Assembly: GCA_021647505.1 (NCBI GenBank)
Contig: JAKIUN010000002.1
Span: 54,158 to 118,157, forward strand
Length of the DNA stretch: 64,000 nt
Direction of reading: 5' to 3'
DNA from: Gammaproteobacteria bacterium
GTDB taxonomy: Bacteria; Pseudomonadota; Gammaproteobacteria; SZUA-152
Position 1 is the first letter of the stretch, and each line of letters begins with the position of its first letter. Below the pieces are notes generated by a model. That model did not search any database and had not been told where the DNA came from. It worked only from the letters and a program-made list of their open reading frames with translations. Below, piece by piece: positions 30,359 to 62,658 of the stretch. A program made the translations under genes and the position numbers.

Positions 30359-30420
30359 CACATCACCGGCAGCAAAAAGCAGAGCGAGGAACGACCGAGA
30401 TTTTTGCTGCCGGTGATGTG
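30359..30420 (-). terminator. perfect 20-bp inverted repeat (cacatcaccggcagcaaaaa / tttttgctgccggtgatgtg) between the 163-aa gene and the TA operon
   Basis: Perfect stem, 22-nt loop; located 26 bp 3' of the 163-aa gene stop and 37 bp upstream of the antitoxin start, so could be terminator and/or operator. Confidence 0.4.
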
Positions 30421-30445
30421 ATTGTTAGCAATATTTATATAGCCA

Positions 30446-41810: not shown

Positions 41811-41859
41811 GCAACTTGTACCTTGTGCTTGTTCCCTTACTTTGTTTTTTTTGGTACTA

Positions 41860-43614: not shown

Positions 43615-44540
43615 ATCATGAGAGAGACAACATCCCCGGGAGCGAGCGGCTGCGGGAAGATATTTGTGGCCTGCTGCGCAACACCCAGGGACTAAGCAAC
43701 TACCACGAACTGCGCCACTGCGATGAGATCCAGGAAATACTGCAGCGCTGGCCCTTGTTGGATCTGAAAACAGAGCAGCAAACTCGATCTGCCAATTTGC
43801 CGTCAGCCCATAAACGGCCTGTCAACGTGACCCTGGTCACCGGTGCCGTAAGTGGCGTGGGAACCACGACCGTGGTGGCCAACTTGGCCAGGGCGTTGCA
43901 GCAGCAAGGCAGGAAAGTGATGGTGGCAGATCTTTCTTGCCGCCAAGATCTGTATTTTCACCTGGGCGGGGCGTCTGCAGTACCCGCTAACGATAGCGAT
44001 GCGGGCCATCGTATTTCCTTGCTCTCTGACCCAGAGGATCCTGGTGATGTCCAGGATGTCCCACGGGCAGCATCGCCCTGGTTGGCAGACCAGCTATCAA
44101 CACTCCCGGTCAATGTGATCGACCACTTGTTGATCGATTGCCCATGGCATGCCCAGGTTGCGTTTCAGCAGGCATGCGCGTTGGCCGGACGTATCCTGCT
44201 GGTGACCACCGCCGAGCAGCCCATCACTTTCCATCAGATTGGCCTCGCCCTGGCCCATGTGACTTCAGCGAGCCAGCCGGACACCATCAACACTCACCTG
44301 TTGATCAACCGGTTCAATTTTGCCGTACCGCTGCAACGGGATATCCATACGCTGTTGCACAGCAGGCCCCCCATCGCGCTGGTGCCAGCAGAAATACCCC
44401 ACGAAAGCCGCATTGCCGACAGCCTCGCCCGGCTGCGAGACATTGTGTCTCTCGTTCCTGGTTGCGCGGCGACCCACAGGTTCCACCTCTTGGGAAATTG
44501 GTTGATTGATCAAGCCACACAGCAGGGAAAGACGGTTTAG
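43611..44540 (+). CDS. bcsQ: cellulose synthase operon protein BcsQ (MinD/ParA-family ATPase) with ~65-aa N-terminal BcsR-like extension
   Basis: Deviant Walker A (TLVTGAVSGVGTTTVVANLARAL) and YhjQ-like body; N-terminal 60-70 aa not part of canonical BcsQ, possibly a fused BcsR. Confidence 0.75.
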   Translation: MNHERDNIPGSERLREDICGLLRNTQGLSNYHELRHCDEIQEILQRWPLLDLKTEQQTRSANLPSAHKRPVNVTLVTGAVSGVGTTTVVANLARALQQQGRKVMVADLSCRQDLYFHLGGASAVPANDSDAGHRISLLSDPEDPGDVQDVPRAASPWLADQLSTLPVNVIDHLLIDCPWHAQVAFQQACALAGRILLVTTAEQPITFHQIGLALAHVTSASQPDTINTHLLINRFNFAVPLQRDIHTLLHSRPPIALVPAEIPHESRIADSLARLRDIVSLVPGCAATHRFHLLGNWLIDQATQQGKTV

Positions 44541-47104
44541 TGAAAAATGGCAGCCCTGCTGAAGGAACAGCGATACCGATGAATTCTGACTCAAATCGCC
44601 ATTCCAACACCGTCAGCCACCGGTCACTGTTGTTCCGGATGCCCCGCGGCTTTTTCCGGGAGCGAATCGCACCACTGTTCCCCCATGTGGATTTTCGCAA
44701 CCTCCGGCCCACAGATCTAATCCGCATCCTGCTGCAGGCACTATGGCTGGCAGTGTTTCGGCAAAACCCCCCGTCATTCCGGCCATCTGTGCGTGTCCGC
44801 TGGCTTCGCCAGCGCATGAAACAGGGGGGCAAGCGCCTGATCCGGCTGATACCCGGCGGCTTACACCAAAAACTGTCTTGGACGCACTTTCGTAAACCAT
44901 TAGAGGCTATCGCCGGACATGATCTGCGTTGGAGCCGACCGCTAGGTCTGGCCGCCTACCTGCTAGCGGCCGGCATCCTCGTGATTGCCATCATTACCCC
45001 GTTCAGCTTGCTCAGCCAGCTGGTGTTCATGGTGCTACTGTGGTTGATCGCCCTCTCGATCCAGCGTATTCCCGGAAATCTGGCCACCTTGATACTGGTC
45101 GTACTCTCTGTCATCGCCTCTAGCCGGTATCTCTGGTGGCGCATTAACTATACCCTCAACTGGGATGACCTCATTGACCTGACGTTGGGCCTTGGCCTGC
45201 TGGCCGCCGAGTTGTTTGCCTGGCTGGTGCTGATACTTGGCTATTTTCAGACCGCCCGACCCTTGCAGCGCCGACCGGTGGAACTTCCCGCAAATCCAGC
45301 GCAGTGGCCAACCGTCGACGTATTCATTCCAACCTACAATGAACCACTGGAGGTGGTTAAACCGACGGTATATGCCGCATTGGGCATGGACTGGCCCAAG
45401 GAAAAGCTCAACGTCTATCTGCTGGATGATGGACGGCGACCGGCATTTCGCCAGTTCGCACAGGAAGCAGGTGTCATTTACATGACACGCCCGGACAACA
45501 GTCATGCCAAGGCAGGCAATCTCAACCATGCCCTGGCCAGAAGCAAAGGTAAATTCGTCGCTATTTTTGATTGCGACCATGTCCCCACCCGCTCTTTCCT
45601 ACAGGTGAACATGGGCTGGTTTCTGCGTGATCCCAAACTGGCGTTAATGCAAACACCTCATCATTTCTTCTCTCCAGACCCTTTTGAGCGAAATCTGAAC
45701 AATTTCCGTACCGTGCCCAACGAAAACGCGCTTTTCTACGGACTCGTGCAAGGTGGCAACGACCTGTGGAACGCTACCTTTTTCTGTGGCTCCTGCGCAG
45801 TGCTTCGGCGCAAGCCGTTGGAAGAGATTGGCGGTATTGCCGTAGAAACCGTCACTGAAGATGCACATACCGCCCTGCGTCTGCACCGTCTCGGCTACAA
45901 TTCCGCCTATCTCAAGATCCCCCAGGCAGCCGGGCTGGCAACCGAGAGTTTCGCGGCCCACGTCGGTCAGCGCATCCGCTGGGCGCGCGGCATGGCACAG
46001 ATACTCCGCCTCGACAATCCGCTACTGGGCAAGGGCCTGAGCATATGGCAGCGTCTGTGCTACGGCAACGCGATGCTGCATTTCCTGTCAGGGATACCCC
46101 GTCTGGTCTTTCTCAGTGCGCCACTCGCATTTTTGCTCCTGCATGCCTACATTATCTACGCACCGGCGCTGCTGATACTGCTCTATGTGGCGCCACATCT
46201 CATTCACGCCAGCATCACCAACTCCCGTATCCAGGGAAAATACCGCTACTCTTTCTGGGCCGAGATCTACGAAACCGCCCTCGCCTGGTATATTGCCCGT
46301 CCGACCACCACGGCGCTCATCGCCCCTCACAAGGGCAGCTTCAATGTCACCGCCAAAGGCGGCCTGATCGCCGAAGAACATTTCGACTGGCGTATCTCCA
46401 AGCCATTTCTTGTCCTGATTGTACTGAATCTGCTGGGTATTATCGTAGGACTGGGACGTTTGGTTGGAGGCCCTGACCATGAAGTGGGCACTGTACTTCT
46501 CAACCTTGCCTGGGCCAGTTACAACCTGCTGATTCTGGGGGCCGCCCTTGGCGTGGCCATGGAAGCCCGGCAGGTGCGCCGTGCACATCGTGTCGATTTC
46601 CTTTTGCCAGCGGCACTGCTACTGCCAAACGGTCAGCACCTGCTGGCAGAGGTACAGAACTTCTCGCTTGACGGCATGAGTCTGTCTTGCAAGGAAGACG
46701 GTGATCTGAAAATCGGCGCATCCGTGCAGGTGTCATTACGTCCTGGTCTGCGCAGTTATGCTTTCCCGGCCACCTTGGTGCGCCTTGAAGGCAACTCACT
46801 TGGATTACAGTTCCAGAAATTGACGCCCCAACAGGAAGCAGACCTGGTGAAATGCACCTTTGGGCGGGCGGATATCTGGATGGACTGGGCCGCCAACAGG
46901 CCACATGACCGTCCTCTTCGCAGTCTAAAAGCAGTGATGTTGAAAGGCATGGAGGGCTATCAGCGCCTGTTTCATTGGGCCCTTCCATCCCATGCCCAGC
47001 CTCTGATCAGGCAGACACGCAGCCTGCTTAAGTATTTCTCCACCTATCTGCCGCGCCGTCCAGCGGTTCAGTCCCATCGCGCGACCTTAAGGAAGGCCCC
47101 ATGA
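44540..47104 (+). CDS. bcsA: cellulose synthase catalytic subunit BcsA (UDP-forming), C-terminal PilZ domain
   Basis: GT2 motifs (DDG, DCDH, TED, QRIRWARG) and PilZ (RRAHRV…DGMSLS); start either GTG at 44540 or ATG at 44579. Confidence 0.9.
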   Translation: MKNGSPAEGTAIPMNSDSNRHSNTVSHRSLLFRMPRGFFRERIAPLFPHVDFRNLRPTDLIRILLQALWLAVFRQNPPSFRPSVRVRWLRQRMKQGGKRLIRLIPGGLHQKLSWTHFRKPLEAIAGHDLRWSRPLGLAAYLLAAGILVIAIITPFSLLSQLVFMVLLWLIALSIQRIPGNLATLILVVLSVIASSRYLWWRINYTLNWDDLIDLTLGLGLLAAELFAWLVLILGYFQTARPLQRRPVELPANPAQWPTVDVFIPTYNEPLEVVKPTVYAALGMDWPKEKLNVYLLDDGRRPAFRQFAQEAGVIYMTRPDNSHAKAGNLNHALARSKGKFVAIFDCDHVPTRSFLQVNMGWFLRDPKLALMQTPHHFFSPDPFERNLNNFRTVPNENALFYGLVQGGNDLWNATFFCGSCAVLRRKPLEEIGGIAVETVTEDAHTALRLHRLGYNSAYLKIPQAAGLATESFAAHVGQRIRWARGMAQILRLDNPLLGKGLSIWQRLCYGNAMLHFLSGIPRLVFLSAPLAFLLLHAYIIYAPALLILLYVAPHLIHASITNSRIQGKYRYSFWAEIYETALAWYIARPTTTALIAPHKGSFNVTAKGGLIAEEHFDWRISKPFLVLIVLNLLGIIVGLGRLVGGPDHEVGTVLLNLAWASYNLLILGAALGVAMEARQVRRAHRVDFLLPAALLLPNGQHLLAEVQNFSLDGMSLSCKEDGDLKIGASVQVSLRPGLRSYAFPATLVRLEGNSLGLQFQKLTPQQEADLVKCTFGRADIWMDWAANRPHDRPLRSLKAVMLKGMEGYQRLFHWALPSHAQPLIRQTRSLLKYFSTYLPRRPAVQSHRATLRKAP

Positions 47105-49392
47105 AGACAGGACGATTACTCTCCTTTTTAACCTTGTTCCTCTTAACCTTATTCCTCTGTCTGTGGAGCATGCAGATACCTGCCAAGACGACGCCGGCGG
47201 GTGCAGCACAGCAGGACACGCCGACAAACTCGCAGAATTTGCCGGCAACACAACGCAGCTATACCTTTGAGGAACTCGGCGCCAGCCACCCCCTGACCCT
47301 GAGCGGCTCCAGCGGTAGCATGGCGCTTTCTTTCGGTGTACACGGTGATGAACTGGTCACTGCGGCCCGGGCGCGAATTACCTATACCTACTCGCCATCA
47401 TTGCTGCCGCATCTTTCGCACATCAAGGTAATACTGAACGATGAGGTACTGGCAACGCTGTCCCTGCCTCAGGAAGAGGCAGGGCAACCAGCCACCCGTG
47501 AAATCGCTCTTGACCCACGCTTTCTGTCCGATTTCAATCGCCTGAGATTCGAGATGGTAGGTCATTACCAGACCGGATGCGAAGACCCGTTCCACTCCAG
47601 TCTGTGGGCACGCATTAGCAATCAGAGTGAATTATTGCTTGAGATTCAGCCAGTAAAGCAGGCAGTGAACCTTGCCGACTTCCCCGAGCCTTTCTTCGAC
47701 CCGAGAAACCTGCATCGCCTGTCTCTGCCTTTCGTGTTTGCTGATGGGGCGGGTCACGAAACCCTGGCGGCAGCGGCAGAACTTGCCTCCTGGTTTGGCA
47801 TCCAGGCCGCCTGGCGTGGCGCCCGTTTCGATGTGCTGATTGACCAGATGCCGGAACGCTATGGCATGGTATTCGCCACCAACGAAAAGCGGCCTGCTTT
47901 TCTCGCACAGCAGGCGCCGGTGACTGGCCCCACGCTTGCCCTCATTGAGCACCCGAACAACTCCTGGGGCAAATTGTTGCTAATCATGGGGCGCAACGAA
48001 GCAGACCTGCGCATGGCGGTGCATGGACTCGTGCTGGGGGAGGCCACCCTTTCCGGCACCACCGTCGAAATCCGCGACTTTGTGCTGCTGAAGGAGCGCA
48101 AACCCTACGATGCTCCCAGCTGGATACGTCTGGACCGTCCCGTGAAGCTCGGTGAACTGATCGAAAACCGCCAGGAGTTACAGGCTGCCGGACGCCAACC
48201 TGGCGCCATCGACATCGAATTGCGTATCCCTGATGACCTGTTTACCTGGCGCAGCGCCGGTATTCCGCTGAAACTGAAATACCGCTACTCCGCACCACTG
48301 AAGGAAGATGAATCACGCCTTACCGTGAAGCTCAACGACCAGTTTCTCACTGCCTTCAATCTGGCGGATGGCCGAGGAGGACTCAAGGAGGGAGTCACCA
48401 TTCCCCTGTTTGGCGAGCTGTTGAGCAACACCAATGAAGTGCTGTTGCCCTCATTTGGCCTACGTCACCGCAACCAGTTGCAGTTGCAGTTTTCCTTTGG
48501 CCACCACCAAAATAGTGGCTGCGGCAGTTACAACCTGGATAACATGCAAGCCGCCATCGACGATGACTCGGTGATCGATCTCCGCGGTTTCTCCCACTAC
48601 ACCGCACTGCCAAATTTACGTTTCTTTGCCAATTCCGGCTACCCCTTCACCCGTCTGGCAGACCAGTCTGAAACCGTTGCGGTCATCGCTGCGGAACCTC
48701 AGGCTGATGAGATCAGCACTCTGTTGACACTGGCCGGTCGCCTGGGTGAATCCACAGGGTATCCCGCTACCCGATTGCAGGTTGTGCCACCAACCGCAAC
48801 GGAAAAACTTCAGAACCGGGAGATACTAATTATCGGCAGCCGCGCCGCCCAGCCTCTGATGGAACACTGGGGAGTGGATCCCGCATCCAAACTGGGTGAG
48901 CAGGGAACTATCAGCACCCCCGCGCTGGCGGTAAACCCACGCTATGACTGGTTCGGTTTCGGCACAGCCCCGATTTTGTCACCGATCACGCAAATCACTA
49001 CCCGCGCCAATGGGCCATTGGCTGCAATTGTAGCCTTTGAATCTCCGCTCAGCGCCGGCCGCAGCGTTGTAGCGTTCATGTCGAACATCCCTGGTAGCTT
49101 GTTGTCGCTACTTGATGCGCTGGAAAACCCGGATACCGCATTAGCAATAAATGGCAGTGCGGTTTTTGTCCGTGACGGAAAGGTAACCAGCAGTAGCAGC
49201 ACCTTGGTGGGCCAAAGCTATTTTGTTGGCGACCTGTCCCTGTGGAGCCGTGTTCACTTTTTCTTTTCACGCCATCCGCTACTGCTGATTTTCCTTACTG
49301 TCGGAGCAACCCTGATCATGGCGTTCGCCCTGTGGCGTACCCTCAAGGGCGTCGCCCGGCGACGCATGGAGGTGGGAGAAAGGAGCCCATGA
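47101..49392 (+). CDS. bcsB: cellulose synthase regulatory (periplasmic) subunit BcsB
   Basis: 763 aa, signal peptide, C-terminal TM anchor, BcsB-family similarity; ATGA overlaps with bcsA stop and bcsZ start. Confidence 0.85.
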   Translation: MKTGRLLSFLTLFLLTLFLCLWSMQIPAKTTPAGAAQQDTPTNSQNLPATQRSYTFEELGASHPLTLSGSSGSMALSFGVHGDELVTAARARITYTYSPSLLPHLSHIKVILNDEVLATLSLPQEEAGQPATREIALDPRFLSDFNRLRFEMVGHYQTGCEDPFHSSLWARISNQSELLLEIQPVKQAVNLADFPEPFFDPRNLHRLSLPFVFADGAGHETLAAAAELASWFGIQAAWRGARFDVLIDQMPERYGMVFATNEKRPAFLAQQAPVTGPTLALIEHPNNSWGKLLLIMGRNEADLRMAVHGLVLGEATLSGTTVEIRDFVLLKERKPYDAPSWIRLDRPVKLGELIENRQELQAAGRQPGAIDIELRIPDDLFTWRSAGIPLKLKYRYSAPLKEDESRLTVKLNDQFLTAFNLADGRGGLKEGVTIPLFGELLSNTNEVLLPSFGLRHRNQLQLQFSFGHHQNSGCGSYNLDNMQAAIDDDSVIDLRGFSHYTALPNLRFFANSGYPFTRLADQSETVAVIAAEPQADEISTLLTLAGRLGESTGYPATRLQVVPPTATEKLQNREILIIGSRAAQPLMEHWGVDPASKLGEQGTISTPALAVNPRYDWFGFGTAPILSPITQITTRANGPLAAIVAFESPLSAGRSVVAFMSNIPGSLLSLLDALENPDTALAINGSAVFVRDGKVTSSSSTLVGQSYFVGDLSLWSRVHFFFSRHPLLLIFLTVGATLIMAFALWRTLKGVARRRMEVGERSP

Positions 49393-50564
49393 TGCGAAAT
49401 ACCAGAGAAACACTGACTCGACAATATAGAGTGGTTGCTGCACTAGGGTGTTCCCTGTTGCTGCTGGCCTGGCTAACGCCGGCTGCGGCTGCGGCCTGCC
49501 CGCCCTGGCCTTTGTGGCAAAGCTTCCAGTATCATTTGCTGAGCGAAGATGGCAGAGTGATCGACTACCATACTCCCGCGCAGCATTCCACTTCCGAGGG
49601 GCAGTCCTATGCACTGTTCATGGCGCTGGTAAACAATGACCAGAAGCTTTTCGACCTGCTGCTGCGCTGGACCGAGAACAACCTCGCACACGGCAGTCTC
49701 GAAGCCCATTTGCCTGCCTGGCAGTGGGGACGCAAGAAAGATGGCGACTGGGGAGTGATCGATACCAACAGCGCCAGCGATGCAGACCTCTGGATAGCAT
49801 ACGGCCTGGCCGAGGCAGGACGCCTCTGGCGCAGACCAGACCTGACGAAAATGGCCAAATCCCTGGCCAGGCGCATCCTGAAGGAGGAAAGCCAACGCCT
49901 GCCCGGCCTGGGATTGATGCTGCTTCCTGGGATCCGGGGGTTTGCCCTGCAAGCGGGGCGCTGGCGCCTCAACCCCAGCTATCTACCACTACAATTGCTG
50001 CGGCGGATGGAGACATTGCAACCAGGCGCAGGCTGGCGGGAAATACTGGAAAACACGGTTACCATGCTGCACGCCAGCGGTAACGGCTTCATCCCAGACT
50101 GGATCATCTATGATGCCCGGCTTGGCTTCCTTCCCGATGAGGTGCATGGCGCCAGTGGCAGCTATGGCGCCATTCGCAACTATTTGTGGGTTGGAATGCT
50201 CTCACCGGACGAACCCCTGCGGCTGCCGCTACTACAGCTTATGCGCCCCATGGCGGAACGGGTGAAACAACTCGGTGCCCCTCCCCGTAACATCAATACC
50301 AAAACCGGGCAATCCAGCGGTCTTGGATCGCCCGGGTTCTCCGCATCCCTGATGCCACTGCTGAAAGCCCTGAAGTACCCCCAGGAACTCGCACTGCTAC
50401 AAGGCCAGACACAGCGGATTCTGCAACATCCGAACCACTATTATGATCAGGTTCTGGCGCTATTTGCCTTGGGTTGGATGGAAGGACGCTACCAATTCGG
50501 CCGCGATGGCAGGCTGCAACCCCTCTGGAAGTCATCATGTACGGAAAACTCAAGTCATTCCTGA
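49389..50564 (+). CDS. bcsZ: endo-1,4-beta-glucanase BcsZ (glycoside hydrolase family 8)
   Basis: Signal peptide then GH8 core (SEGQSYALFMALV, DADLWIAYGL); start reset to MMRNTRE (RBS GGAGAAAGGAG upstream) rather than ORF-tool start inside bcsB. Confidence 0.85.
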   Translation: MMRNTRETLTRQYRVVAALGCSLLLLAWLTPAAAAACPPWPLWQSFQYHLLSEDGRVIDYHTPAQHSTSEGQSYALFMALVNNDQKLFDLLLRWTENNLAHGSLEAHLPAWQWGRKKDGDWGVIDTNSASDADLWIAYGLAEAGRLWRRPDLTKMAKSLARRILKEESQRLPGLGLMLLPGIRGFALQAGRWRLNPSYLPLQLLRRMETLQPGAGWREILENTVTMLHASGNGFIPDWIIYDARLGFLPDEVHGASGSYGAIRNYLWVGMLSPDEPLRLPLLQLMRPMAERVKQLGAPPRNINTKTGQSSGLGSPGFSASLMPLLKALKYPQELALLQGQTQRILQHPNHYYDQVLALFALGWMEGRYQFGRDGRLQPLWKSSCTENSSHS

Positions 50565-53419
50565 TACTGCTGCTCGCCGGTACTAGCCCTTGCTTTGGAG
50601 ACAGCAACGTTTTTTCCACACTGTTGGAACGGGCGGAATTCTGGCACTCCCTTGGCCGCAATGACTTTGCCGGGCAGGCGCTGAAAAAAGCCATACGAGC
50701 CGAACCGGATAATCCTGCCGGCTTGGTGTTGCAAGCTTTTTTGGATCTTGATCTGGACAGACGCCCGGCGGCCGAGAAGCTGCTCCAGCAGCTGCGACAA
50801 CACCATCCTAAAGCCCCCCAGACCATGGTGTTGGAACAAGTACTGGATATCACCGGCCGGAGCAGAACACAGCTCCACAAGGCACGCCTGGCGGTGCGTC
50901 TGGGCAGGCGGCAGGAAGCGCTGCAAGTTTTTCGTCAGCTGTTCGCGGGAACCCCGCACCCCTCTCCGCTGGCGTTAGAGTACTGGGGGCTCCTGGGACG
51001 ACAGGCAGTCCACCGGGAAGAGGCCATGAAAGGTTTGCAAACACTGGTGCGCACCTATCCCGGCAATCTGCGCTACCGGATGGCGCTGGCCCGGCAACTG
51101 GCCAGAAAAGATCCTCCTGCGCCTGAAAGTATCGAAACTTTCATCGAACTCAGTCAGTACTCCCAACTCCGCCGCGAAGCCAGGTCAGCCTGGCGCAACG
51201 CCGTCCTGGCGCTGCCGGCAGAGCATGATGCTCTACCGGCACTGCGGCAATACATCGAACAGGCCCCAAAAGACAGCGGTGTAGCACAGCGAATCCAGAA
51301 AATCGAGTCTGCGATCATTGCCCAAAAGAAACGGGATCGCGATCCCGTGCATGCAGGCTTGTTGCGCGGCATAACACTCATGGAAAAAGGCCGTCTGGAT
51401 GCCGCCGATCCACTGCTGGGGGCCGCCGTCAAAAAATGGCCCGGGGAGGTAAGGCCCGTAGGCGCCATAGGACGGTTACGGCTGAAACAGGCTCGTTACC
51501 GCGAAGCTATTTCCTGGTTCCAGCGGGCGCTGGAACTGGAACCGGACAATGCCAGCAAATGGCGCTCCCTGTTGCATGCCGCAAACTACTGGGGATTCAT
51601 CAAACAGGCGAAGTCGGCGCTACAACGAGGTGATTTGCACCAGGCGGATGCAATATCACGCAAGGCCGTCGCGCTCGATGCGCAAGAAGCGTATGGCATC
51701 GCTCTGCTCGCCCAGGTACAGTCGCAACTAAAAGACACCCATGAAGCAGAGCGGCTTTATCGCCAAGCACTGACCGTTGACCCGCAAAGTAGCACGGCAC
51801 TGCGTGGGTTGATCAATCTTTATGCCGATAATCAGCGTCTGGATGATGCATTTGCATTGCTTGATGAGCTGACATCCTCTCAGCAGCAGACACTGGGGAA
51901 ATCCTACACGACACTGCGGGCCTCTCTGCTGCAAAAACAAGCCGATCAGCATCTCCGGGACGGCGCCCCGGAGATGGCAATCACCGCCTTGCGGCAGGCC
52001 GTTGACTTCGATCCGGAGAATCCCTGGCTGCGCTTTGATCTGGCTGATCTGCTGCTGGTGGGAAACGAGATGGAACAGGCTGTCGAGGTGTTCGAGACGG
52101 GCCTCGCCCTCGCGCCACAGAATCCGCAAATGCGCTATGCCTATGCATTGCTGCTTTCCCGCCTGGGCAGGGAAACGGACGCACTGGAAATACTGGATGA
52201 ACTGCCGAGTAACCAGCTGCCGCCAAACGTACTGGCCTACCGCAATCGCCTGCAACACAAGCAGCAGATACAGCAAAGTCCCAGGCTTTTCTCCGGACTA
52301 CATATGAGGTTCCGCGATGCAACCGGAGGGCTTTCCAGCCTGACGTCCCATGAACTGCCCATAGAGGCACAGTGGCCATTGTACCAAGGACAAATGTTCG
52401 CACATGTTGCCCCCGTACACCTGGATGCAGGCAAACTTGACTTGGGCAACCCGGATATCCGGAGCCTTTTTGGCGCAGGCGCCTTGTGCCTGAAAAACTG
52501 CGCTGACTCACCACTGGTGCAGATAGAGAGAGGCACATCCTTTGCTATCGGATACCGAGATATCAACTGGCGTGCAGATCTGGGCCACTCACCTTTAGGC
52601 TTTCCCATTTCCCACCTGCTTGGGGGTGTGGAAATCGATGGCGACCTGCGGGGTGTTAGCTGGAGCCTGGGACTCTCCCAGCGACCGGTCACCAGCACTC
52701 TACTGAGTTATGCCGGCATGGAGGATGCGGAAACCGGCAAGGTCTGGGGGGGGGTTGTTGCCACTGGCCTGCATCTCGGACTCAGCGGGGATCAAGGTGA
52801 TTCATACGGGTTCTGGGGCAGTTTTGGTATTCATAACCTGCACGGGGAAGGGGTTGCTGACAACTTTCGGTTGCGGGCTTTGAGCGGCATTTACTGGCGT
52901 TTACTCAACCGGGAGAATACCCAGCTGCGTGGCGGATTAAACATAATGGCCTTGCGTTTTGACAAAAACATGGGTGAGTTCACTATCGGTCACGGCGGTT
53001 ACTATAGTCCCCAGTCCTATGTTTCGCTTTCACTGCCGATGAGTTTTTATGGGCGCAGGGATCGCTGGTCATGGGAGTTACGCGGCTCAGTTTCCTACTC
53101 GGTTTCCCACTTCGACCGCAGCCCCTACTTTCCTGAAGCCCCGAGTCTACAGGCCAAAGCCGAACGGCTGGAAGCAATAACCGGGATCACGCCATATTAT
53201 GGTGCCTACACCAGCTCCGGCGCTAGCTACTCCTTCAGTGGAGCGGTGGAATATCGGCTCAATCCCCACCTGCATATGGGCACGAAAATGAAGATCGAAC
53301 GCGCCGACTTTTATGCGCCAGACCACTTCCTTCTCTACTTCCGCTACAGCGCCCACCCCCACCTGGGTCCAATGCCCTTGCATCCGCGTCCGACAGTCCC
53401 TTATTCCGACGTTAACTGA
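50537..53419 (+). CDS. bcsC: cellulose synthase operon protein BcsC (TPR periplasmic scaffold + C-terminal outer-membrane beta-barrel)
   Basis: Signal peptide MYGKLKSFLILLLAGTSPCFG, multiple TPR repeats, C-terminal BcsC barrel region (GGYYSPQSYVSLSLPMSFYGRRDRW); shorter than E. coli BcsC (fewer TPRs). Confidence 0.85.
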   Translation: MYGKLKSFLILLLAGTSPCFGDSNVFSTLLERAEFWHSLGRNDFAGQALKKAIRAEPDNPAGLVLQAFLDLDLDRRPAAEKLLQQLRQHHPKAPQTMVLEQVLDITGRSRTQLHKARLAVRLGRRQEALQVFRQLFAGTPHPSPLALEYWGLLGRQAVHREEAMKGLQTLVRTYPGNLRYRMALARQLARKDPPAPESIETFIELSQYSQLRREARSAWRNAVLALPAEHDALPALRQYIEQAPKDSGVAQRIQKIESAIIAQKKRDRDPVHAGLLRGITLMEKGRLDAADPLLGAAVKKWPGEVRPVGAIGRLRLKQARYREAISWFQRALELEPDNASKWRSLLHAANYWGFIKQAKSALQRGDLHQADAISRKAVALDAQEAYGIALLAQVQSQLKDTHEAERLYRQALTVDPQSSTALRGLINLYADNQRLDDAFALLDELTSSQQQTLGKSYTTLRASLLQKQADQHLRDGAPEMAITALRQAVDFDPENPWLRFDLADLLLVGNEMEQAVEVFETGLALAPQNPQMRYAYALLLSRLGRETDALEILDELPSNQLPPNVLAYRNRLQHKQQIQQSPRLFSGLHMRFRDATGGLSSLTSHELPIEAQWPLYQGQMFAHVAPVHLDAGKLDLGNPDIRSLFGAGALCLKNCADSPLVQIERGTSFAIGYRDINWRADLGHSPLGFPISHLLGGVEIDGDLRGVSWSLGLSQRPVTSTLLSYAGMEDAETGKVWGGVVATGLHLGLSGDQGDSYGFWGSFGIHNLHGEGVADNFRLRALSGIYWRLLNRENTQLRGGLNIMALRFDKNMGEFTIGHGGYYSPQSYVSLSLPMSFYGRRDRWSWELRGSVSYSVSHFDRSPYFPEAPSLQAKAERLEAITGITPYYGAYTSSGASYSFSGAVEYRLNPHLHMGTKMKIERADFYAPDHFLLYFRYSAHPHLGPMPLHPRPTVPYSDVN

Positions 53420-55933: not shown

Positions 55934-55946
55934 GGTATGTAAATCC

Positions 55947-56128
55947 GGATCAGGGCACTTCTGTTAATCGCTCGCGGCCTCTGGCTCGCAGCCATGTAGG
56001 GTGGGCACGTTTTTTGTGCCCACGCGGTTGGCGCATATTCCACGTGGGCATGAAAAGCCTGCCCACCCTACCAGGTTTTTTGTGGGGAGCCGTCAGGATC
56101 AGGGTACGTCTGTCAATCGCTCGCGGCC
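55947..56128. repeat. full copy of REP/MITE-like double-hairpin element bracketed by 33-bp direct repeats
   Basis: Core catgtagggtgggcacgttttttgtgcccacgcggttggcgcatattccacgtgggcatgaaaagcctgcccaccctaccaggttttttgtggggagccgtcag flanked by ggatcagggcacttctgttaatcgctcgcggcc (55947-55979) and ggatcagggtacgtctgtcaatcgctcgcggcc (56096-56128). Confidence 0.8.
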
Positions 56129-58079: not shown

Positions 58080-58107
58080 TTGAGCAATCAGTAAGGGCGC
58101 GTATAAT
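58080..58107 (+). promoter_or_regulatory. putative sigma70 promoter (TTGAGC-16 bp-TATAAT) upstream of tRNA-Glu
   Basis: Near-consensus -35/-10 hexamers with 16-bp spacer followed by GC-rich discriminator; 67 nt upstream of tRNA 5' end. Confidence 0.35.
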
Positions 58108-58173: not shown

Positions 58174-58248
58174 GCTCCCTTCGTCTAGTGGTTAGGACAC
58201 TGGCCTCTCACGCCGGTAACAGGGGTTCGAATCCCCTAGGGAGCGCCA
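58174..58248 (+). tRNA. tRNA-Glu (anticodon CUC)
   Basis: Cloverleaf folds perfectly: acceptor stem GCTCCCT/AGGGAGC, anticodon loop CT-CTC-AC, T-arm GGGGTTCGAATCCCC, CCA end; body nearly identical to tRNA-Glu of E. coli except anticodon CTC instead of TTC. Confidence 0.85.
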
Positions 58249-58368
58249 CTATTTATCCGCCCCCCTTTCATCGTTCATCTCACTTTGCCATGCGCGCGGC
58301 CGGTAATCCTTGCGCCACCCTGGCAGTTCTGGTAACAAAGACTCCGTAATATCAGGGGAAGATAGCCA

Positions 58369-58677
58369 ATGATCAATTTTGAAGAAAAACGCGACTTTAT
58401 TCGCATGACCGCAGATCATCCACTGCACTTTCACGTCATGGAATCCGGGCAAACGGGCCGCGGGATCTGCGTCAACCTGAGCGCCACCGGGATACTGTTC
58501 CACACCGATCAGCCCATCGCCACCGGCACACAGCTGAGCATTAATATCACGCCAAAATATTCCGTGGTATCCCCCTTCGATGCCGATATCGAGGTACTGC
58601 GCTGCATCCCCAACGGCGTTGAAGACGAGTATGAAGTCGCAGGCAAGATTCTTTCTATCCTTAATCCTCAGCCTTAA
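58369..58677 (+). CDS. stand-alone PilZ-domain (c-di-GMP-binding) protein
   Basis: RxxxR motif (KRDFIR) and (D/N)xSxxG motif (NLSATG), 102 aa. Confidence 0.7.
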   Translation: MINFEEKRDFIRMTADHPLHFHVMESGQTGRGICVNLSATGILFHTDQPIATGTQLSINITPKYSVVSPFDADIEVLRCIPNGVEDEYEVAGKILSILNPQP

Positions 58678-58681
58678 CTGA

Positions 58682-59938
58682 TCAGGGCTCGAAGCGAATC
58701 ACGTCGCCAGGCGCCAGGCGGGCAATGTCCTCGGCCAACTCTCCCACCGAGAACAGACGTTGTACCTGCGTCACAATCAAGTTCGTGGCCGGATTTTCCG
58801 CATAGCCCAGCGCGCGCTGGCCCGGGTAATCCTTTACCGGCACTTCGCTGAGCTTGTAGGTATTCAGCACGTCACCCACACGGATGTCGGCCAATCCACC
58901 GGCATCGAAATAGACCTTGTTGCCTTCGGCGCGGATCACTCGTGCAGTAAAGGGCTGTGAACCGACATCACTGACGATCAGTGCCACCATTCTGTCCAAC
59001 ATCTGATCCACTTCCCGGCCGAAAGGCGAAGCGAAGAATTTTTCACTCATCATCACAGTATTAGCGGGATGCAATACCGTCAAAAAACGCTCTTCCACCG
59101 TTTCACTGACCCTGTGCCGTGCCACCAAGGCTCCAGAAATACCGTCATGAATAAACAAGTCCAGTTCCAAATGACGCATTTTGGTGCCGAGAAAATGATT
59201 GCTCACACTCATGTCGCGAATCACCCCTGTGATGACGAACTGCACACCCAGGGATTCGGCGAACTCCGAAGCCACCTGATGCGGCTCACGCGCCGGCGGC
59301 AGAGCACCGAGAATGCGCCGCTGGGAAATGACGCCCTCTTCGCTCAGCGGCAGTAAGTATTGACTGGCGTTCACTGTCAGCACTCGGCCATCACTGATCA
59401 GGCGTCGTTCCAGTTCGCGCGCCAGTTCCGTTTCGATCTTCGGCAGGTCGTGAATCTGGGTTCGGTCGAGAACGTGGAACTGGCTCACGGCGACCTTGCG
59501 GCGGTAACGATTTGCCGCTTCGGCATTGCCATTCGCGTACCGGCTGGCCTGTCCGGTATCGCCAGCGCCACCCGGCTCCGCCTTCATTAGCGCCTGTAGC
59601 AGCGCATCATCTGGCACCTGGGCACGAATCTTCACATAATAATGATCTTCATCCGCCCATTCGCGGAGAATCACCACATGGGTCACGCGCCCCTGTGCGG
59701 AAAAACGCATATTGTCCGCCACCACACCGTTACGGGTCGTCACCGTGGTGATGGAGATGCGTGCATTGGCCTGCATCAGTGCCTGGCGAATAGCATCCTG
59801 CAGGGCCATACGCTTGGCCTGCGCCGTCGAGTCGCCGATGCGCGCCGCGCCCTCGGCCTCTACGGTCTGCGCCTGTGCCAGTCCGCCCGGCAGCGGCACA
59901 ATCAGCAATAACAGCAGGATTTTTAACAGCTTGGACAC
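58682..59938 (-). CDS. flgT: FlgT-like protein (flagellar H-ring assembly protein T family)
   Basis: Signal peptide; N-terminal domain resembles Vibrio FlgT (VEAEGAARIGDSTAQAKRMALQDAIRQALMQA vs YEATGQAVI.GD...AR..A.QDALRQAS.QA); adjacent to motY; GTG start. Confidence 0.5.
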   Translation of the reverse strand: MSKLLKILLLLLIVPLPGGLAQAQTVEAEGAARIGDSTAQAKRMALQDAIRQALMQANARISITTVTTRNGVVADNMRFSAQGRVTHVVILREWADEDHYYVKIRAQVPDDALLQALMKAEPGGAGDTGQASRYANGNAEAANRYRRKVAVSQFHVLDRTQIHDLPKIETELARELERRLISDGRVLTVNASQYLLPLSEEGVISQRRILGALPPAREPHQVASEFAESLGVQFVITGVIRDMSVSNHFLGTKMRHLELDLFIHDGISGALVARHRVSETVEERFLTVLHPANTVMMSEKFFASPFGREVDQMLDRMVALIVSDVGSQPFTARVIRAEGNKVYFDAGGLADIRVGDVLNTYKLSEVPVKDYPGQRALGYAENPATNLIVTQVQRLFSVGELAEDIARLAPGDVIRFEP

Positions 59939-60039
59939 AACATTCCCTCCATCGCCACCCGGGTGGCGCTCACGTCACACCCACAGCGGCAAACATCCCA
60001 ACATTCTTGAAGTCTGACGGCTTCTTAAAAAGTCTCTAA

Positions 60040-60211
60040 TTTTGTGGGGAGTCGTCAGCCACAGGCGCCATAACACGTTAAAGCCATGTAGGGTGGGCAC
60101 GTTTTTTGTGCCCACGCGGTTGGCACATATTCCACGTGGGCATGAAAAGCCTGCCCACCCTGCCAGGTTTTTGTGGGGAGCCGTCAGCCACAGGCGCCAT
60201 AACACGTTAAA
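60040..60211. repeat. full copy of REP/MITE-like double-hairpin element bracketed by 43-bp direct repeats
   Basis: ttttgtggggagtcgtcagccacaggcgccataacacgttaaag (60040-60083) + core (98% identical to the 55993-56095 copy) + tttgtggggagccgtcagccacaggcgccataacacgttaaag (60169-60211). Confidence 0.8.
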
Positions 60212-60244
60212 GAATGCAGATCCCGTGCCGACATTTTCTGCATC

Positions 60245-61228
60245 ATGGCGTACAGATGCAGCACAGCCGCCTGTCGGTGCAAAAAAGCGGCCCTCGGCCT
60301 GGTACTGCTGCTGTTATGCCCCCCACCCCTGCTGGCCAACACCCAGCATTTCCAGGCACCGCTCAATGCGGTGAAATGGGAGCCCTCCGCGAGACAAAAG
60401 TCCTCAGCTGGGCAAGAGCCCTCAGCGAGACAGGAGCCCCCCACAGAAAACCTGTACTGCAGCCTCAGCCACGACATCCCCCTTTACGGACGCGCCACCT
60501 TTGCCAAATCCGCAGGCCATGAACTGGGTTTCCGTATGACGACGAAATGGAATATCGGACTCAATGCCAAGCGCGCCCGGCTGCGCGCCATGCCGCCGGA
60601 ATGGCGCCCGCAGGCGACGGGCCAAAACCTGGGAGATATTCGCATACAGCCAGGCAATACACCCTTCCGGCTGGATGAATCCCTGACACGGCGGCTGTTG
60701 ATGGCATTGCAAAACGGCATGGAGGTCTCTTTCACCTACCCTGTCGAGCTTGATGGGCAGGATCACATCAAGGTCTCTTTGCCGGGGGTCAGTTTTCGTC
60801 CGGCGATGGATGTATTTGCTTCCTGCCTGAGCCGGTTGCCGGTATACGACTTTGCCGATTTCAGCGATACCGTGGTGCACTTTGCCGCCGGCACCGATGG
60901 ACTCAGTCCCAAAATCCACAAGCAACTGGATGCTATTGCCAAATACCTGGCCACTGACCCGACAGTGAAAAAAATCATCATCGAGGGCCACACGGATGAC
61001 ATCGGCCAATACCGCGCCAACGATAAGCTGGGACAGCGTCGCAGCTCAGCAATTCGCGACTACCTGTTAGCTATGGGTGTACCAACCGGCAAATTCGAGC
61101 TGCGCTCCTTGGGTGAACGCAGGCCCATCTATACCAACACCACGGATGAAGGCCGAGCCCGTAACCGGCGGGCCCGTATCACCCTAGAACGCAGCAGTGA
61201 CGAGGCAATGCACGTCCACAGTCACTGA
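60245..61228 (+). CDS. motY: sodium-type flagellar motor T-ring protein MotY (OmpA-like C-terminal domain)
   Basis: N-terminal domain matches MotY (F.APL...W...S...CSLSHDIPLYGRATF vs Vibrio Y.ASLDQSHW.L..S.LECTLRHDIPGYG.A.F); C-terminal OmpA/PG-binding motif (IEGHTDDIG..AND.LGQRRS.A…R..NRRA). Confidence 0.65.
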   Translation: MAYRCSTAACRCKKAALGLVLLLLCPPPLLANTQHFQAPLNAVKWEPSARQKSSAGQEPSARQEPPTENLYCSLSHDIPLYGRATFAKSAGHELGFRMTTKWNIGLNAKRARLRAMPPEWRPQATGQNLGDIRIQPGNTPFRLDESLTRRLLMALQNGMEVSFTYPVELDGQDHIKVSLPGVSFRPAMDVFASCLSRLPVYDFADFSDTVVHFAAGTDGLSPKIHKQLDAIAKYLATDPTVKKIIIEGHTDDIGQYRANDKLGQRRSSAIRDYLLAMGVPTGKFELRSLGERRPIYTNTTDEGRARNRRARITLERSSDEAMHVHSH

Positions 61229-61250: not shown

Positions 61251-61283
61251 AAAAAGGCCGGGATCAACCGGCCTTGTATATTT
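61251..61283. terminator. bidirectional rho-independent terminator
   Basis: aaaaa-GGCCGG-gatcaa-CCGGCC-ttgtatattt between convergent motY and the SecB-like gene. Confidence 0.6.
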
Positions 61284-61311: not shown

Positions 61312-61824
61312 TTACACTTCGCCGTCAGCCTCACTCATTTCATCTCTTGGAGGAATGATGTACACAGGCACTTCGAAAGCAGGTGAAAACCCTATCCTTG
61401 CACAAGTAGACTGCACATACTCGCGCCAATACGGCCATACATGATAGCCTACATTATCAGCAGAGAATGCCTTAAGCTCTTCTTCTTTTAACTGACTCTT
61501 AGATAAATATTTAGCTTCAAAGACACCAACGATTTCCAATATCGGTTTGTATTCATCATTGACACTCTCTTCTTTCTCATTCAAAAAGATTAGACGAATA
61601 CCAACGGAGTAAGTAAAACGGTAATCCCAAACATTCTCTCCGCCCTCAGGATCTGTCAATGAAATTTCTTTTATCCTGACAAACGATCTGAAACTCTGTG
61701 CAGCTGTTTCATCTCTATCTAAAGTTGAGGGGTCTATATCATCCCTAACAAATATTTTGCTCTCTTTCAGATTTACCGATTGAATACAAAGATTGTTTTG
61801 AGCTATGTTCAAACAACTATTCAT
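61312..61824 (-). CDS. SecB-like chaperone (third gene of a toxin-antitoxin-chaperone module)
   Basis: 170 aa, low GC; C-terminal region NVGYHVWPYWREYVQSTCARIGFSPAFEVPVYI matches the SecB signature (…YPY.REYV.....R....P..L) including the M. tuberculosis SecB-like TAC chaperone. Confidence 0.55.
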   Translation of the reverse strand: MNSCLNIAQNNLCIQSVNLKESKIFVRDDIDPSTLDRDETAAQSFRSFVRIKEISLTDPEGGENVWDYRFTYSVGIRLIFLNEKEESVNDEYKPILEIVGVFEAKYLSKSQLKEEELKAFSADNVGYHVWPYWREYVQSTCARIGFSPAFEVPVYIIPPRDEMSEADGEV

Positions 61825-61826
61825 AA

Positions 61827-62255
61827 TTAAGCGGCCTGATTCTCCCAGGCCTTAAAATCACGGTAGTCAAATACATTCTCAGACTTACGGATCAATTCGT
61901 CTGTCCTCAGATCAACCTTCTCCGTTACCCAAGAAATTTTACCCGTAGCTTCCAGACTCTCCAGCACGGACTCAACTTGAATAGTAATTTTTGGCTTTAC
62001 ATCCAAGGCAAAACAAATATCAGAGAGAGTTCCTAGAGTCATATTACGAGCACCACCCAAGATTTGAGTGACATAAGAACGAGATTTCCCCAGACGTCGT
62101 GCAAGCTCTTTCTTGTTAACATTCAAATCTTCGAGAGTGACTAAAATATCTTCAGTCACGTTATACACAAGTTCTTCTCGTGCATACACTCTTTCATCTG
62201 CTCTGCTGAACTCTTTATTTTCAGAGAAAAATAAGTTTTTAGCGCTCATCTCCAT
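61827..62255 (-). CDS. XRE-family HTH antitoxin with C-terminal extension (candidate chaperone-addiction region)
   Basis: HTH (LNVNKKELARRLGKSRSYVTQILGGARNMTLGTLSDICFAL) followed by ~60-aa tail; overlaps upstream toxin gene; start chosen at MEMSAKNL (ORF-tool start at 62300 also possible). Confidence 0.55.
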   Translation of the reverse strand: MEMSAKNLFFSENKEFSRADERVYAREELVYNVTEDILVTLEDLNVNKKELARRLGKSRSYVTQILGGARNMTLGTLSDICFALDVKPKITIQVESVLESLEATGKISWVTEKVDLRTDELIRKSENVFDYRDFKAWENQAA

Positions 62256-62658
62256 TCTCCTCGATTCTTCGCCAATTAGCCCCAACCTTGTGCGTATCAC
62301 GTTCTCTCAGATTATCATAATCCTTATAGACATAATGACTGATAAAATACGTATTCTTATACCTCTCCGACAACCAACAATAACCTCGAACAGGTATTCG
62401 TTTCAGGACGTTAAACTTCTTAGCTTTCTGCTGCCCTTTCCTTTTAGGCAGATCACCTTCTTGCGGAAAATTTTCCCTGGACATTCTCTGCCCATCAGAA
62501 AGCCTTTCTATCTGCTGAATGATTCCGCGCGTAAACGACTCACGCCTCCTGGCATCGACTCTATTCAGAGTCTCGCTATAACTTTTCAGTGCTCCCTCAC
62601 AGTGTATGACCGTAAATTTAGACCCGTTGTAGCTGTCCTTGGGTTTGTCGTTTTTCAC
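62239..62658 (-). CDS. putative HigB/Gp49-like (RelE superfamily) toxin
   Basis: Basic 139-aa protein, C-terminal half …KFNVLKRIPVRGYCWLSERYKNTYFISHYVYKDYDNL resembles HigB/Gp49-like toxins; GTG start; first gene of operon with HTH gene. Confidence 0.45.
   Translation of the reverse strand: MKNDKPKDSYNGSKFTVIHCEGALKSYSETLNRVDARRRESFTRGIIQQIERLSDGQRMSRENFPQEGDLPKRKGQQKAKKFNVLKRIPVRGYCWLSERYKNTYFISHYVYKDYDNLRERDTHKVGANWRRIEENGDER

Follow-up and report, generated by a model that had tools for sequence, protein, structure and literature searches.

Two genes of the Vibrio-type flagellar motor, flgT and motY, form a divergent pair in this stretch of DNA, and the gene for a small PilZ protein meets flgT tail to tail. 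Of all adjacencies in the locus, the junction between the PilZ gene and flgT is the one kept most persistently in a clade of uncultured Gammaproteobacteria from marine and vent settings. The PilZ protein is predicted to bind c-di-GMP. It may couple the c-di-GMP level to swimming as a trans-acting adaptor of the motility apparatus, a reading to which we assign a probability of roughly one half.

The window is the whole stretch of 64,000 nucleotides that was analysed. It contains all four features that the initial annotation described between positions 58174 and 61228, and all four are real. They are arranged in the order tRNA-Glu(CUC) (+), PilZ (+), flgT (-) and motY (+). The flgT/motY pair stands apart from other flagellar genes, with housekeeping genes on either side, pcnB-folK-panBC and ssb. 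The three proteins are added members of known families. MotX and pomAB-type stator genes are absent from the 64-kb window. A sodium motor is a putative assignment that draws on the published correlation of FlgT with Na+ or Na+/H+ stators (PMC6375700). The overall interpretation offered earlier, a sodium-motor locus of H- and T-ring genes with a possible c-di-GMP input, is supported in part.

The PilZ protein is encoded at 58369..58677 on the forward strand. It has 102 amino acids and lacks a signal peptide, as is expected of a cytoplasmic protein. A Pfam search gives PilZ (PF07238) as the sole match, at 32.7 bits against a cut-off of 22.5 and over residues 6-86, and finds no PilZN (YcgR_N) domain. 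Both motifs of c-di-GMP receptors are present in canonical form: RxxxR as K7-R8-x3-R12 (R8-D-F-I-R12), and NxSxxG as N36-L-S-x-x-G41 (N36-L-S-A-T-G41). Across 45 close and 8 distant homologues, R8, R12, N36, S38 and G41 never vary, and the same holds for the extended patterns KRxxxR and NLSxxG. A further conserved loop, ITPxYSVVSPFxA at residues 60-72, is specific to the family. All of the homologues found come from uncultured organisms.

The AF2 model of the PilZ protein (pLDDT ~82; 81.6) is a six-stranded beta-barrel that stops at residue 98, and a C-terminal helix is missing from it. Foldseek matches the model to the PilZ domains of MotI, Alg44, BcsA, YcgR, MrkH and PA0012 with TM scores of 0.56-0.68. 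The best folds in the PDB are the c-di-GMP-bound domains of MotI, Alg44, BcsA and YcgR, with MotI at the top (5vx6, TM 0.68). Searches of all PDB chains with phmmer and with a family profile return no PilZ match at E <= 10, and so detect no sequence similarity to the characterised adaptors included there, such as MapZ and PA0012. Motifs and fold together suggest that the protein binds c-di-GMP. A lysine or arginine before RxxxR indicates a dimeric ligand (bioRxiv 10.1101/2020.02.11.943704), and the lysine at this position suggests an intercalated c-di-GMP dimer. A BcsA with a PilZ domain is encoded in the same window, from which it follows that the organism uses c-di-GMP.

In Vibrio, the periplasmic protein FlgT, which is made up of three domains, nucleates the H-ring. 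The FlgT homologue is encoded here at 58682..59938 on the reverse strand and has 418 amino acids, with a Sec signal peptide that ends in AQA. The FlgT_N (E 4.9e-12, 46.7 bits) and FlgT_M (E 4.1e-17, 63.2 bits) domains of Pfam are both above gathering, while neither Pfam FlgT_C nor any NCBIfam model matches; of the three domains that were to be searched for, the profiles thus recover two. The AF2 model (pLDDT 80) contains an all-beta domain at residues 331-415. Foldseek aligns this model full length with Vibrio FlgT (3w1e, E 2e-24; 8z5n, E 7e-24; 414-420 columns). The family profile matches 8z5n at E 7e-24 over positions 3-349, and the HMM alignment extends to residue 324 of 377 in the Vibrio protein. 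As modelled, the protein has the C-terminal beta domain and the full three-domain fold. Its N-terminus reads MSKLLKILLLLLIVPLPGGLAQA followed by QT, and inspection by eye finds no lipobox cysteine after the signal peptide. It is therefore predicted to be a secreted, non-lipidated periplasmic protein.

MotY is a periplasmic protein of the T-ring, composed of MotY_N and OmpA domains, that anchors the stators to peptidoglycan. The homologue at 60245..61228 on the forward strand (327 amino acids) matches both Pfam domains, MotY_N at E 7.5e-28 (98 bits) and OmpA at E 3.5e-22 (79 bits). Over residues 69-325 it aligns with Vibrio MotY (2zf8) at E 5.7e-32, both N-domain cysteines included, and the identification made earlier is secure. 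The score against the NCBIfam equivalog for Vibrio MotY is 139.7 bits, below the cut-off of 400, and the protein is a divergent orthologue rather than a Vibrio-type equivalog by the NCBIfam criterion. NCBI labels it only "OmpA family protein". Within the gene, Tandem Repeats Finder reports an 18-nt tandem repeat of 3.3 copies (60380..60439); the EPSARQ-like linker that it encodes joins the signal peptide to the MotY_N domain. A pattern scan places a terminator-like hairpin after the gene at 61254..61275, readable on both strands.

Both flagellar genes have predicted promoters of the sigma-28 type. For flgT this is TCAAG-N15-GCCGCTGT (59983..60010, reverse strand), at a position that each of the 12 aligned relatives keeps; in the sister clade the site reads TAAAG-N15-GCCGCTAG. 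Of 56 loci, 25 have a sigma-28-like site upstream of flgT, compared with 2/40 for pcnB and 0/20 for ssb. The copy in the window scores 4/5 + 5/8 and would alone fall below the scan threshold. The conserved motY promoter is TAAAG-N14-GCCGACAT (60208..60234, forward strand). Its TAAAG and GCCGAC elements are the same in 12 of 12 aligned relatives, including those with a diverged spacer, and it is above the scan threshold in 12 of 33 motY loci. The start codon of motY follows the predicted -10 element by only 10 nt, which makes its true start or leader uncertain. The conservation of these FliA (sigma-28)-type sites leads to the prediction that flgT and motY are both late flagellar genes.

The spacer between flgT and motY also contains the REP-like element noticed earlier, confirmed here at 60040..60212. 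This palindromic REP/MITE-like element consists of an 85-nt hairpin core with a flanking 44-nt direct repeat, and it folds at -86 kcal/mol (z -6.3). A second copy is found at 55944-56128; none is expected by chance. Compared with the closest relative, the element amounts to an insertion of 129 nt. It is missing in L049, whose PilZ is 98% identical to that of the window, and present in L004 and L008. The TAAAG of the predicted motY promoter comes from its 3' direct repeat.

The PilZ gene has a predicted promoter of a different kind. The only block conserved 5' of the gene across aligned relatives consists of TTGCGC (58310-58315), a 17-nt spacer ending in TG-G, and TAACAA (58333-58338), on the forward strand. 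It is kept even in L004 and L008, where the tRNA gene sits 1.4 kb away. No sigma-28 or sigma-54 motif occurs in the region upstream of PilZ, and this block is a putative sigma-70-like promoter, judged by its sequence and conservation. The frequency of sigma-28-like sites upstream of PilZ is that of the background (7/105, against 2/40 for pcnB).

The tRNA gene (58174..58248, forward strand) has an encoded CCA end and the anticodon CUC, as initially annotated. ARAGORN calls the anticodon CTC, Rfam RF00005 gives 64.3 bits where the gathering score is 29, and the anticodon loop CUCUCAC can be read directly. A sigma-70-like promoter, TTGAGC-16-TATAAT, precedes it at 58080..58107 on the same strand (10/12 in a consensus scan, a pattern match only). 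The CUC anticodon had been pointed out as a departure from the usual UUC, but it is not anomalous. The gene is kept at the same position in at least 14 relatives' loci and is identical in sequence in six close relatives (L001, L002, L004, L005, L006 and L008), one relative also encodes tRNA-Glu(UUC), and the genes of the window use GAG 467 times and GAA 374 times. As an additional isoacceptor for the abundant GAG codon this tRNA is ordinary, and it lies outside the module.

Evidence for a link between PilZ and flgT can be found in the gene order of related genomes. In a scan centred on FlgT, PilZ is convergent with flgT within at most 530 nt in 29 of 30 gammaproteobacterial flgT loci, in which FlgT identity ranges from 91% down to 36%. 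In the same scan, MotY is adjacent in 18/26 loci and pcnB adjoins PilZ in 15/29. A scan centred on PilZ places the FlgT-adjacent PilZs in one clade of about 60 metagenomic loci. The pair has withstood an insertion of 4.5 kb on the PilZ side, made up of HTH-REC, PAS-MCP, REC-HD-GYP and hybrid-kinase genes, and it is kept after relocation behind secA and behind cheW-mcp-cheA. In all, it persists through at least four left contexts (pcnB, the signalling insert, secA, cheWA), while on the right there are two, either motY or flgP plus p283. Three independent neighbourhoods, namely flgT, MCP with HD-GYP, and cheWA, thus link PilZ to motility or c-di-GMP genes.

The initial annotation had placed PilZ immediately downstream of flgT. 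It does adjoin the 3' end of flgT, with 4 nt between the stop codons, but on the opposite strand and behind a predicted promoter of its own. The two genes are convergent and therefore not co-transcribed. The annotation's suggestion that PilZ is a candidate motor regulator draws support from the conserved synteny and is unproven. If it is correct, c-di-GMP-loaded PilZ would act on a cytoplasmic motility component, for example an A subunit of the stator, FliG/FliM, FliL or an enzyme of chemotaxis. MapZ, which acts with CheR1, is a precedent for the last of these. PilZ cannot act directly on mature FlgT or MotY, because both are periplasmic.

Several observations count against a motility role: the convergent orientation, the sigma-70-like promoter, and the background level of sigma-28 sites at PilZ. 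In E. coli, by contrast, ycgR is FliA-dependent. The absence of detected sequence similarity to any characterised PilZ adaptor also counts against it. Orientation and promoter would equally fit a PilZ unrelated to the flagellum, serving as a general c-di-GMP adaptor or acting on some other target, with flgT kept beside it by inheritance of a rarely broken 3'-3' junction. This explanation is a serious one, somewhat short of even odds. Four to five loci within the clade retain PilZ without flgT, in L044-L046 as pcnB|PilZ|x|ssb and in L076/L079 as secA-PilZ-pyrE, and distant PilZ relatives (34-42% identity) lie in housekeeping contexts beside queD/trpS, ispG, cinA, mlaA and rraA. For these reasons a motility role is plausible but unproven, a case by association only. 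Vertical inheritance predicts that FlgT-adjacent PilZs form a single clade, and all of them do; neutral inheritance could explain much of the persistence, because rearrangements would seldom hit a 3'-3' junction of only 4 to 250 nt. Against this stand the many contexts through which the pair was kept when every other adjacency broke, and the recruitment of MCP, HD-GYP, CheW and CheA genes, all of motility or c-di-GMP signalling, as neighbours in sister lineages.

Alternatively, the link could operate at the level of RNA, with convergent PilZ and flgT transcripts damping each other by transcriptional interference or antisense pairing, whatever PilZ binds. The transcripts would overlap, since the stops are 4 nt apart and no terminator-like hairpin is found at 58600-58750, and the tail-to-tail arrangement is conserved. 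However, the gap between the open reading frames varies from 10 to 529 nt among relatives, so the overlap is not obviously conserved, and the strong conservation of the PilZ protein means that the protein itself is under selection; a link at the RNA level is improbable. Least credible of all is that the locus has nothing to do with flagella, the FlgT-like protein being an LPP20/CsgG/PelC-type lipoprotein and "MotY" a generic OmpA-family protein. The missing FlgT_C and NCBIfam matches, the low equivalog score and the NCBI name of MotY would agree with it. It is effectively refuted by the fold and profile matches of FlgT and by the MotY matches: PelC, CsgG and GNA1162 match the FlgT model over one domain only, with E >= 1e-7, against a full-length match to Vibrio FlgT, which disposes of the concern that the protein might be a generic LPP20/curli-type lipoprotein. 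The lack of a lipobox cysteine, the cysteine pair of MotY and the sigma-28-type promoters at both genes also speak against it.

A broader proposal goes beyond the adaptor reading. The flgT-linked PilZs of about 100 residues could be an undescribed, lineage-wide family of c-di-GMP effectors for Vibrio-type (H/T-ring, high-torque) motors. Such a protein would be a minimal single-domain brake, clutch or assembly regulator replacing the two-domain YcgR/FlgZ type, its level possibly also set against that of flgT by convergent transcription. This proposal is speculative, and we consider it unlikely as a whole.

To our knowledge, work on H- and T-ring proteins has been confined almost entirely to Vibrio, Shewanella and their relatives. 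The present examples belong to uncultured vent and marine sulfur-cycle Gammaproteobacteria that form a deep-branching clade, and their genes are arranged differently, as a divergent flgT/motY pair under predicted FliA-type promoters. Most clusters of single-domain PilZ adaptors have, as far as we know, no known function. Should PilZ control motility, high-torque polar motors would have in it a minimal c-di-GMP input, and such adaptors a new partner class. If it does not, the locus is a warning that tail-to-tail genes can stay together across order-level divergence with no coupling of function.

Compared with FlgT of V. alginolyticus and V. cholerae (3W1E, 8Z5N), the homologue described here shares the three domains, the Sec signal peptide, and a full-length structure and profile match. 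It differs in having only ~17% identity, 418 rather than 377 amino acids, a longer disordered N-M linker (110-145), an extra segment around 196-218, and no Pfam FlgT_C match. Its gene faces motY, and flgO and flgP are absent from the window; in distant relatives an LPP20/FlgP-like gene precedes flgT, as flgP lies beside flgT in Vibrio. MotY resembles Vibrio MotY (2ZF8) over the whole mature protein, with MotY_N, an OmpA-like peptidoglycan-binding domain and the N-domain cysteine pair. It has a sigma-28-type promoter, and motY is a late flagellar gene in Vibrio too. The score below the equivalog cut-off, the EPSARQ-like linker and the lack of MotX in the window set it apart. Locus tags show that flgT is grouped with flgO/flgP in Vibrio, Shewanella and Colwellia and that motY is unlinked to it (PMC6375700), so the divergent adjacency seen here is not, as had been stated, that of Vibrio.

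Among PilZ proteins, YcgR, FlgZ and MotI (the DgrA of B. subtilis) are flagellar brakes and clutches of ~210-250 amino acids with two domains, PilZN/YcgR_N and PilZ. The present protein shares with them a PilZ domain with c-di-GMP motifs, a genomic link to flagellar genes and, in MotI, its best fold. It has the PilZ domain alone and no FliA-type promoter, and the earlier grouping with these proteins must be given up. It can also be compared with Caulobacter DgrA/DgrB and with MapZ (PA4608), HapZ and PA0012 of P. aeruginosa, which likewise have ~100 amino acids, a single PilZ barrel, RxxxR and D/NxSxxG. Domain and motifs would make it a single-domain adaptor, with no sequence relationship to the DgrA/MapZ type detectable beyond the motifs and hence no sequence-level orthology to a characterised adaptor; its model lacks the C-terminal helix, and the ITPxYSVVSPFxA loop is its own. 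DgrA and MapZ are regulators of motor function and chemotaxis (bioRxiv 10.1101/2020.02.11.943704). By analogy, the flgT-linked PilZ is presumably also a trans-acting adaptor that binds its partner when loaded with c-di-GMP.

The genes considered here lie on a 129-kb contig of an uncultured gammaproteobacterial MAG, and the G+C content of the window is 58%. A tRNA-Glu with anticodon CUC (58174-58248, +) is followed after 120 nt, on the same strand, by the ORF of a 102-aa protein whose sole Pfam match is PilZ, above gathering score (58369-58677, +). The 418-aa FlgT-like ORF, with Pfam domains FlgT_N and FlgT_M (58682-59938, -), meets PilZ tail to tail, the two stops being 4 nt apart on opposite strands. 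Across a spacer of 306 nt, motY is divergent from flgT and encodes 327 aa with MotY_N and OmpA domains (60245-61228, +). The three products are NCBI entries MCF6209333-35. The left flank is housekeeping (panC, panB, a deoxynucleoside kinase gene, folK and pcnB); the right flank has a low-GC cassette of three ORFs, ssb and an MFS transporter gene. A scan of about 40 larger window ORFs, covering the dcw region in part, revealed no further gene of flagellar, GGDEF or EAL type.

Several other features of the window were recorded. A complete cellulose-synthase operon, bcsGQABC (41842-53419, +), encodes a pEtN transferase (BcsG), BcsQ, a GT2 protein with a PilZ domain (BcsA), BcsB and BcsC; it is a second c-di-GMP effector system within the window. 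The cassette between motY and ssb (61312-62658, -) consists of orf170, a gene for a 157-aa HTH_26/HTH_3 protein and orf139, with a GC3 of about 0.35-0.44 against 0.6-0.8 in most adjoining genes. It is present in four of the relatives' loci retrieved for comparison (L003, L006, L008, L039) and missing from four others (L001, L002, L005, L007). PADLOC and Pfam searches matched the HTH protein alone (PADLOC PDC-M64B/C, "control protein"), and these ORFs may represent a small mobile cassette, a toxin-antitoxin-like one or one for defence. A class A RNase P RNA (330 bits; 28618-28985, -) is followed by two ORFs of 99 and 163 aa with GC3 of 0.30-0.37 (29808-30937, -). Neither has a Pfam match, and the longer has a marginal PADLOC match only (PDC-S67, E 0.005). 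Beyond them, a gene encodes 547 aa that include a serpin domain (E 1e-27; 31116-32759, -). Serpin domains are uncommon in bacteria.

The FlgT-like protein is only weakly similar to Vibrio FlgT (8z5n) in a single-sequence search (E 3e-5), but a profile built from 66 homologues finds Vibrio FlgT over nearly the full length (E 7e-24). The AlphaFold2 model (pLDDT 80) has three domains, the C-terminal one all-beta. Searched as a whole with Foldseek, it retrieves the FlgT crystal structure (E 2e-24) and FlgT in the cryo-EM LPHT ring (E 7e-24). The runners-up, CT253, GNA1162, PelC and CsgG, fall short of this by 17 orders of magnitude and align over a single domain. The ORF is therefore not a generic LPP20/curli-type lipoprotein, the reading that would have overturned the initial annotation. 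MotY matches Vibrio MotY across the full mature protein (E 5.7e-32), with both N-domain cysteines aligned. The FlgT and MotY assignments are both genuine. The MotY score is under the NCBI cut-off for the Vibrio equivalog, which points to a divergent orthologue of Vibrio MotY, and NCBI annotates it only as "OmpA family protein". Of the three proteins, MotY varies most among close relatives, with 60% identity where FlgT has 87%. Within motY, an 18-nt tandem repeat of 3.3 copies (60380-60439, +) codes for an EPSARQ-like linker that follows the signal peptide.

ARAGORN and Rfam both detect the tRNA-Glu(CUC), the only tRNA that they find in the window; its anticodon loop is CUCUCAC and its 3' CCA is encoded. 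The gene is identical in six close relatives, is kept beside pcnB in at least 14 loci and is missing from the distant clade. One relative (L013) also has a tRNA-Glu(UUC), and Glu codons in the window are GAG 467 times and GAA 374 times. This tRNA is an additional isoacceptor of an ordinary kind. The REP-like element reported between flgT and motY is likewise real. It belongs to a palindromic REP/MITE-like element with two copies in the window, 4 kb apart (55944-56128 and 60040-60212), whose 91-nt cores are 98% identical. Relative to the closest relative (L049), where it is absent, the copy near motY is a 129-nt palindromic insertion, which also occurs in L004 and L008; this copy forms a very stable hairpin (z -6.3). 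A 44-nt duplication flanking the element restores the TAAAG of the motY promoter, which is therefore intact.

When the flgT-motY spacer is aligned across 12 relatives, two motif pairs are invariant. One is the predicted sigma-28-type promoter of motY, TAAAG-N14-GCCGACAT (60208-60234, +), retained even where the spacer sequence has diverged. The other is that of flgT, TCAAG-N15-GCCGCTGT (60010 to 59983, -), whose counterpart in the sister clade is TAAAG-N15-GCCGCTAG. In a scan with a score threshold, 25 of 56 loci have a sigma-28-like site upstream of flgT and 12 of 33 have one upstream of motY; the corresponding counts are 2/40 for pcnB, 0/20 for ssb and 7/105 for PilZ. PilZ is instead preceded by a conserved element, TTGCGC-N17(TG)-TAACAA (58310-58338, +), which is kept in relatives whose tRNA sits 1.4 kb off. 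Together, the invariant motifs and the scan counts predict that flgT and motY are FliA-dependent late genes and that PilZ is outside that set. A sigma-28 promoter for PilZ built on GCCGGTAA at 58299-58306 was rejected, as this site lacks a -35 partner and varies among relatives. No sigma-54 promoter was found at PilZ or motY, and on the flgT side there is one marginal match (score 9/11), inside the motY promoter region. The annotated ATG of motY (60234-60247 region) is 10 nt past the predicted -10 and has no Shine-Dalgarno sequence; two relatives (L007 and L066) have the ATG some 40 nt further downstream. motY may have an almost leaderless transcript, or its start codon may be mis-set.

The PilZ protein carries K7-R8-D-F-I-R12 and N36-L-S-A-T-G41. 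Motifs of the K-R-x-x-x-R and NxSxxG types are the canonical c-di-GMP contacts of PilZ domains, and here neither varies among 45 homologues at 49-85% identity and 8 at 36-41%. A loop at residues 60-72 is conserved as well. In the model (pLDDT 82) six strands form a barrel and a C-terminal helix is lacking; the closest folds are c-di-GMP-bound PilZ domains (MotI, Alg44, BcsA, YcgR, MrkH and PA0012). No sequence or profile link to any solved PilZ protein was found. When 1.84 billion cluster representatives were scanned in full with HMMER, 282 clusters matched at E <= 1e-10; almost all of those listed are about 96-110 aa, and the family of minimal PilZ proteins is a modest one. The protein has no signal peptide and is therefore cytoplasmic. 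Since FlgT and MotY are periplasmic, any effect on the motor would need a cytoplasmic partner.

A FlgT-centred scan covered 185,579 species genomes and gave 36 loci, 35 of them from MAGs labelled Gammaproteobacteria, Chromatiales, Ectothiorhodospiraceae or Thiohalomonadales, plus some Betaproteobacteria. Of the 30 gammaproteobacterial loci, over which FlgT identity falls from 91% to 36%, 29 have a convergent PilZ homologue no more than 530 nt from the 3' end of flgT. By comparison, motY adjoins flgT in just 18 of 26 evaluable loci and pcnB adjoins PilZ in just 15 of 29. The PilZ-flgT junction is thus the most stable adjacency of the locus. At betaproteobacterial flgP-flgT loci PilZ is absent.

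In a sister clade, a 4.5-kb insert separates PilZ from tRNA-Glu and pcnB, and PilZ remains beside flgT (loci L009, L011-L020, L039-L043 and L056-L068). The insert encodes a HTH(MerR-like)-REC regulator, divergent from PilZ, a PAS chemoreceptor, a REC-HD-GYP c-di-GMP phosphodiesterase and a PAS hybrid histidine kinase. In distant lineages flgT is second in an operon, after a gene for an LPP20/FlgP-like lipoprotein (loci L021-L029, L037, L047, L071-L078 and L098). This operon faces a conserved secreted protein of 283-288 aa (p283), which has no Pfam match and is VWA-like by eye. On the left of PilZ are pcnB, secA or cheW-mcp-cheA, and the block PilZ, flgT-flgP, p283 shifts as a unit among the pcnB, secA and cheA contexts.

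A PilZ-centred metagenome scan (alignment A2) returned 80 loci. In a neighbour-joining tree built from the PilZ sequences of every locus retrieved, FlgT-adjacent PilZs are essentially one clade of about 60 loci. Two kinds of locus within this clade lack flgT, with gene orders pcnB, PilZ, x, ssb (L044-L046) and secA-PilZ-pyrE (L076/L079). L044 comes from assembly GCA_022627515.1, L076 from contig VAPL010036046.1 and L079 from contig Ga0316206_1000056. Relatives outside the clade (34-42% identity) adjoin queD/trpS, ispG, cinA, mlaA, rraA or an RR-PP2C/STAS pair. In one of these loci (L117) flgP-flgT is 4 kb away with unrelated genes between, and the proximity is coincidental. A homologue labelled "Beggiatoa alba" was discarded as a non-flagellated test case, since its contig belongs to a MAG and carries flgT and motY.

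PilZ may tentatively be regarded as a motility adaptor, with a probability of about 0.45-0.5. Its stablest junction is with flgT, and sister lineages have recruited motility and c-di-GMP genes beside it; this respectable guilt-by-association argues for a role in motility or chemotaxis. Several points count against that role: PilZ and flgT converge, PilZ has a promoter of non-flagellar type, the junction offers rearrangement only a small target, some loci within the clade lack flgT, and no cultured carrier of the family was found, all matches being metagenomic. Only a little less probable is that PilZ stays beside flgT through neutral inheritance; the gain of further motility and c-di-GMP genes in sister lineages speaks against this. 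A minor possibility, compatible with either explanation, is that overlapping convergent PilZ and flgT transcripts interact at the RNA level. The initial annotation's candidate motor regulator is accordingly favoured by conserved synteny and weakened by orientation, promoter and the loci without flgT; as a whole, that annotation described the genes correctly and its interpretation holds in part only. A literature search found no paper connecting FlgT with PilZ. PilZ, FlgT and MotY all belong to known families, and what is of interest is only the conserved PilZ-flgT pairing and the predicted FliA-type promoters.

PilZ had been likened to small PilZ proteins such as YcgR, FlgZ and MotI. Those are two-domain proteins, and the single-domain PilZ described here is not of that family. 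In function it comes nearest to DgrA and MapZ, which are single-domain adaptors; in a comparison that covered MapZ and other solved single-domain PilZ adaptors, no orthology was detectable. FlgT has been reported only from species with Na+ or Na+/H+ stators (PMC6375700). A sodium-driven motor is a reasonable supposition for the present locus; pomAB and motX are both absent from the window. The adjacency of flgT and motY had been described as Vibrio-like. However, flgT accompanies flgO/flgP in Vibrio, Shewanella and Colwellia, with motY at another site (PMC6375700), and the divergent flgT/motY pair of the window is thus a different arrangement.
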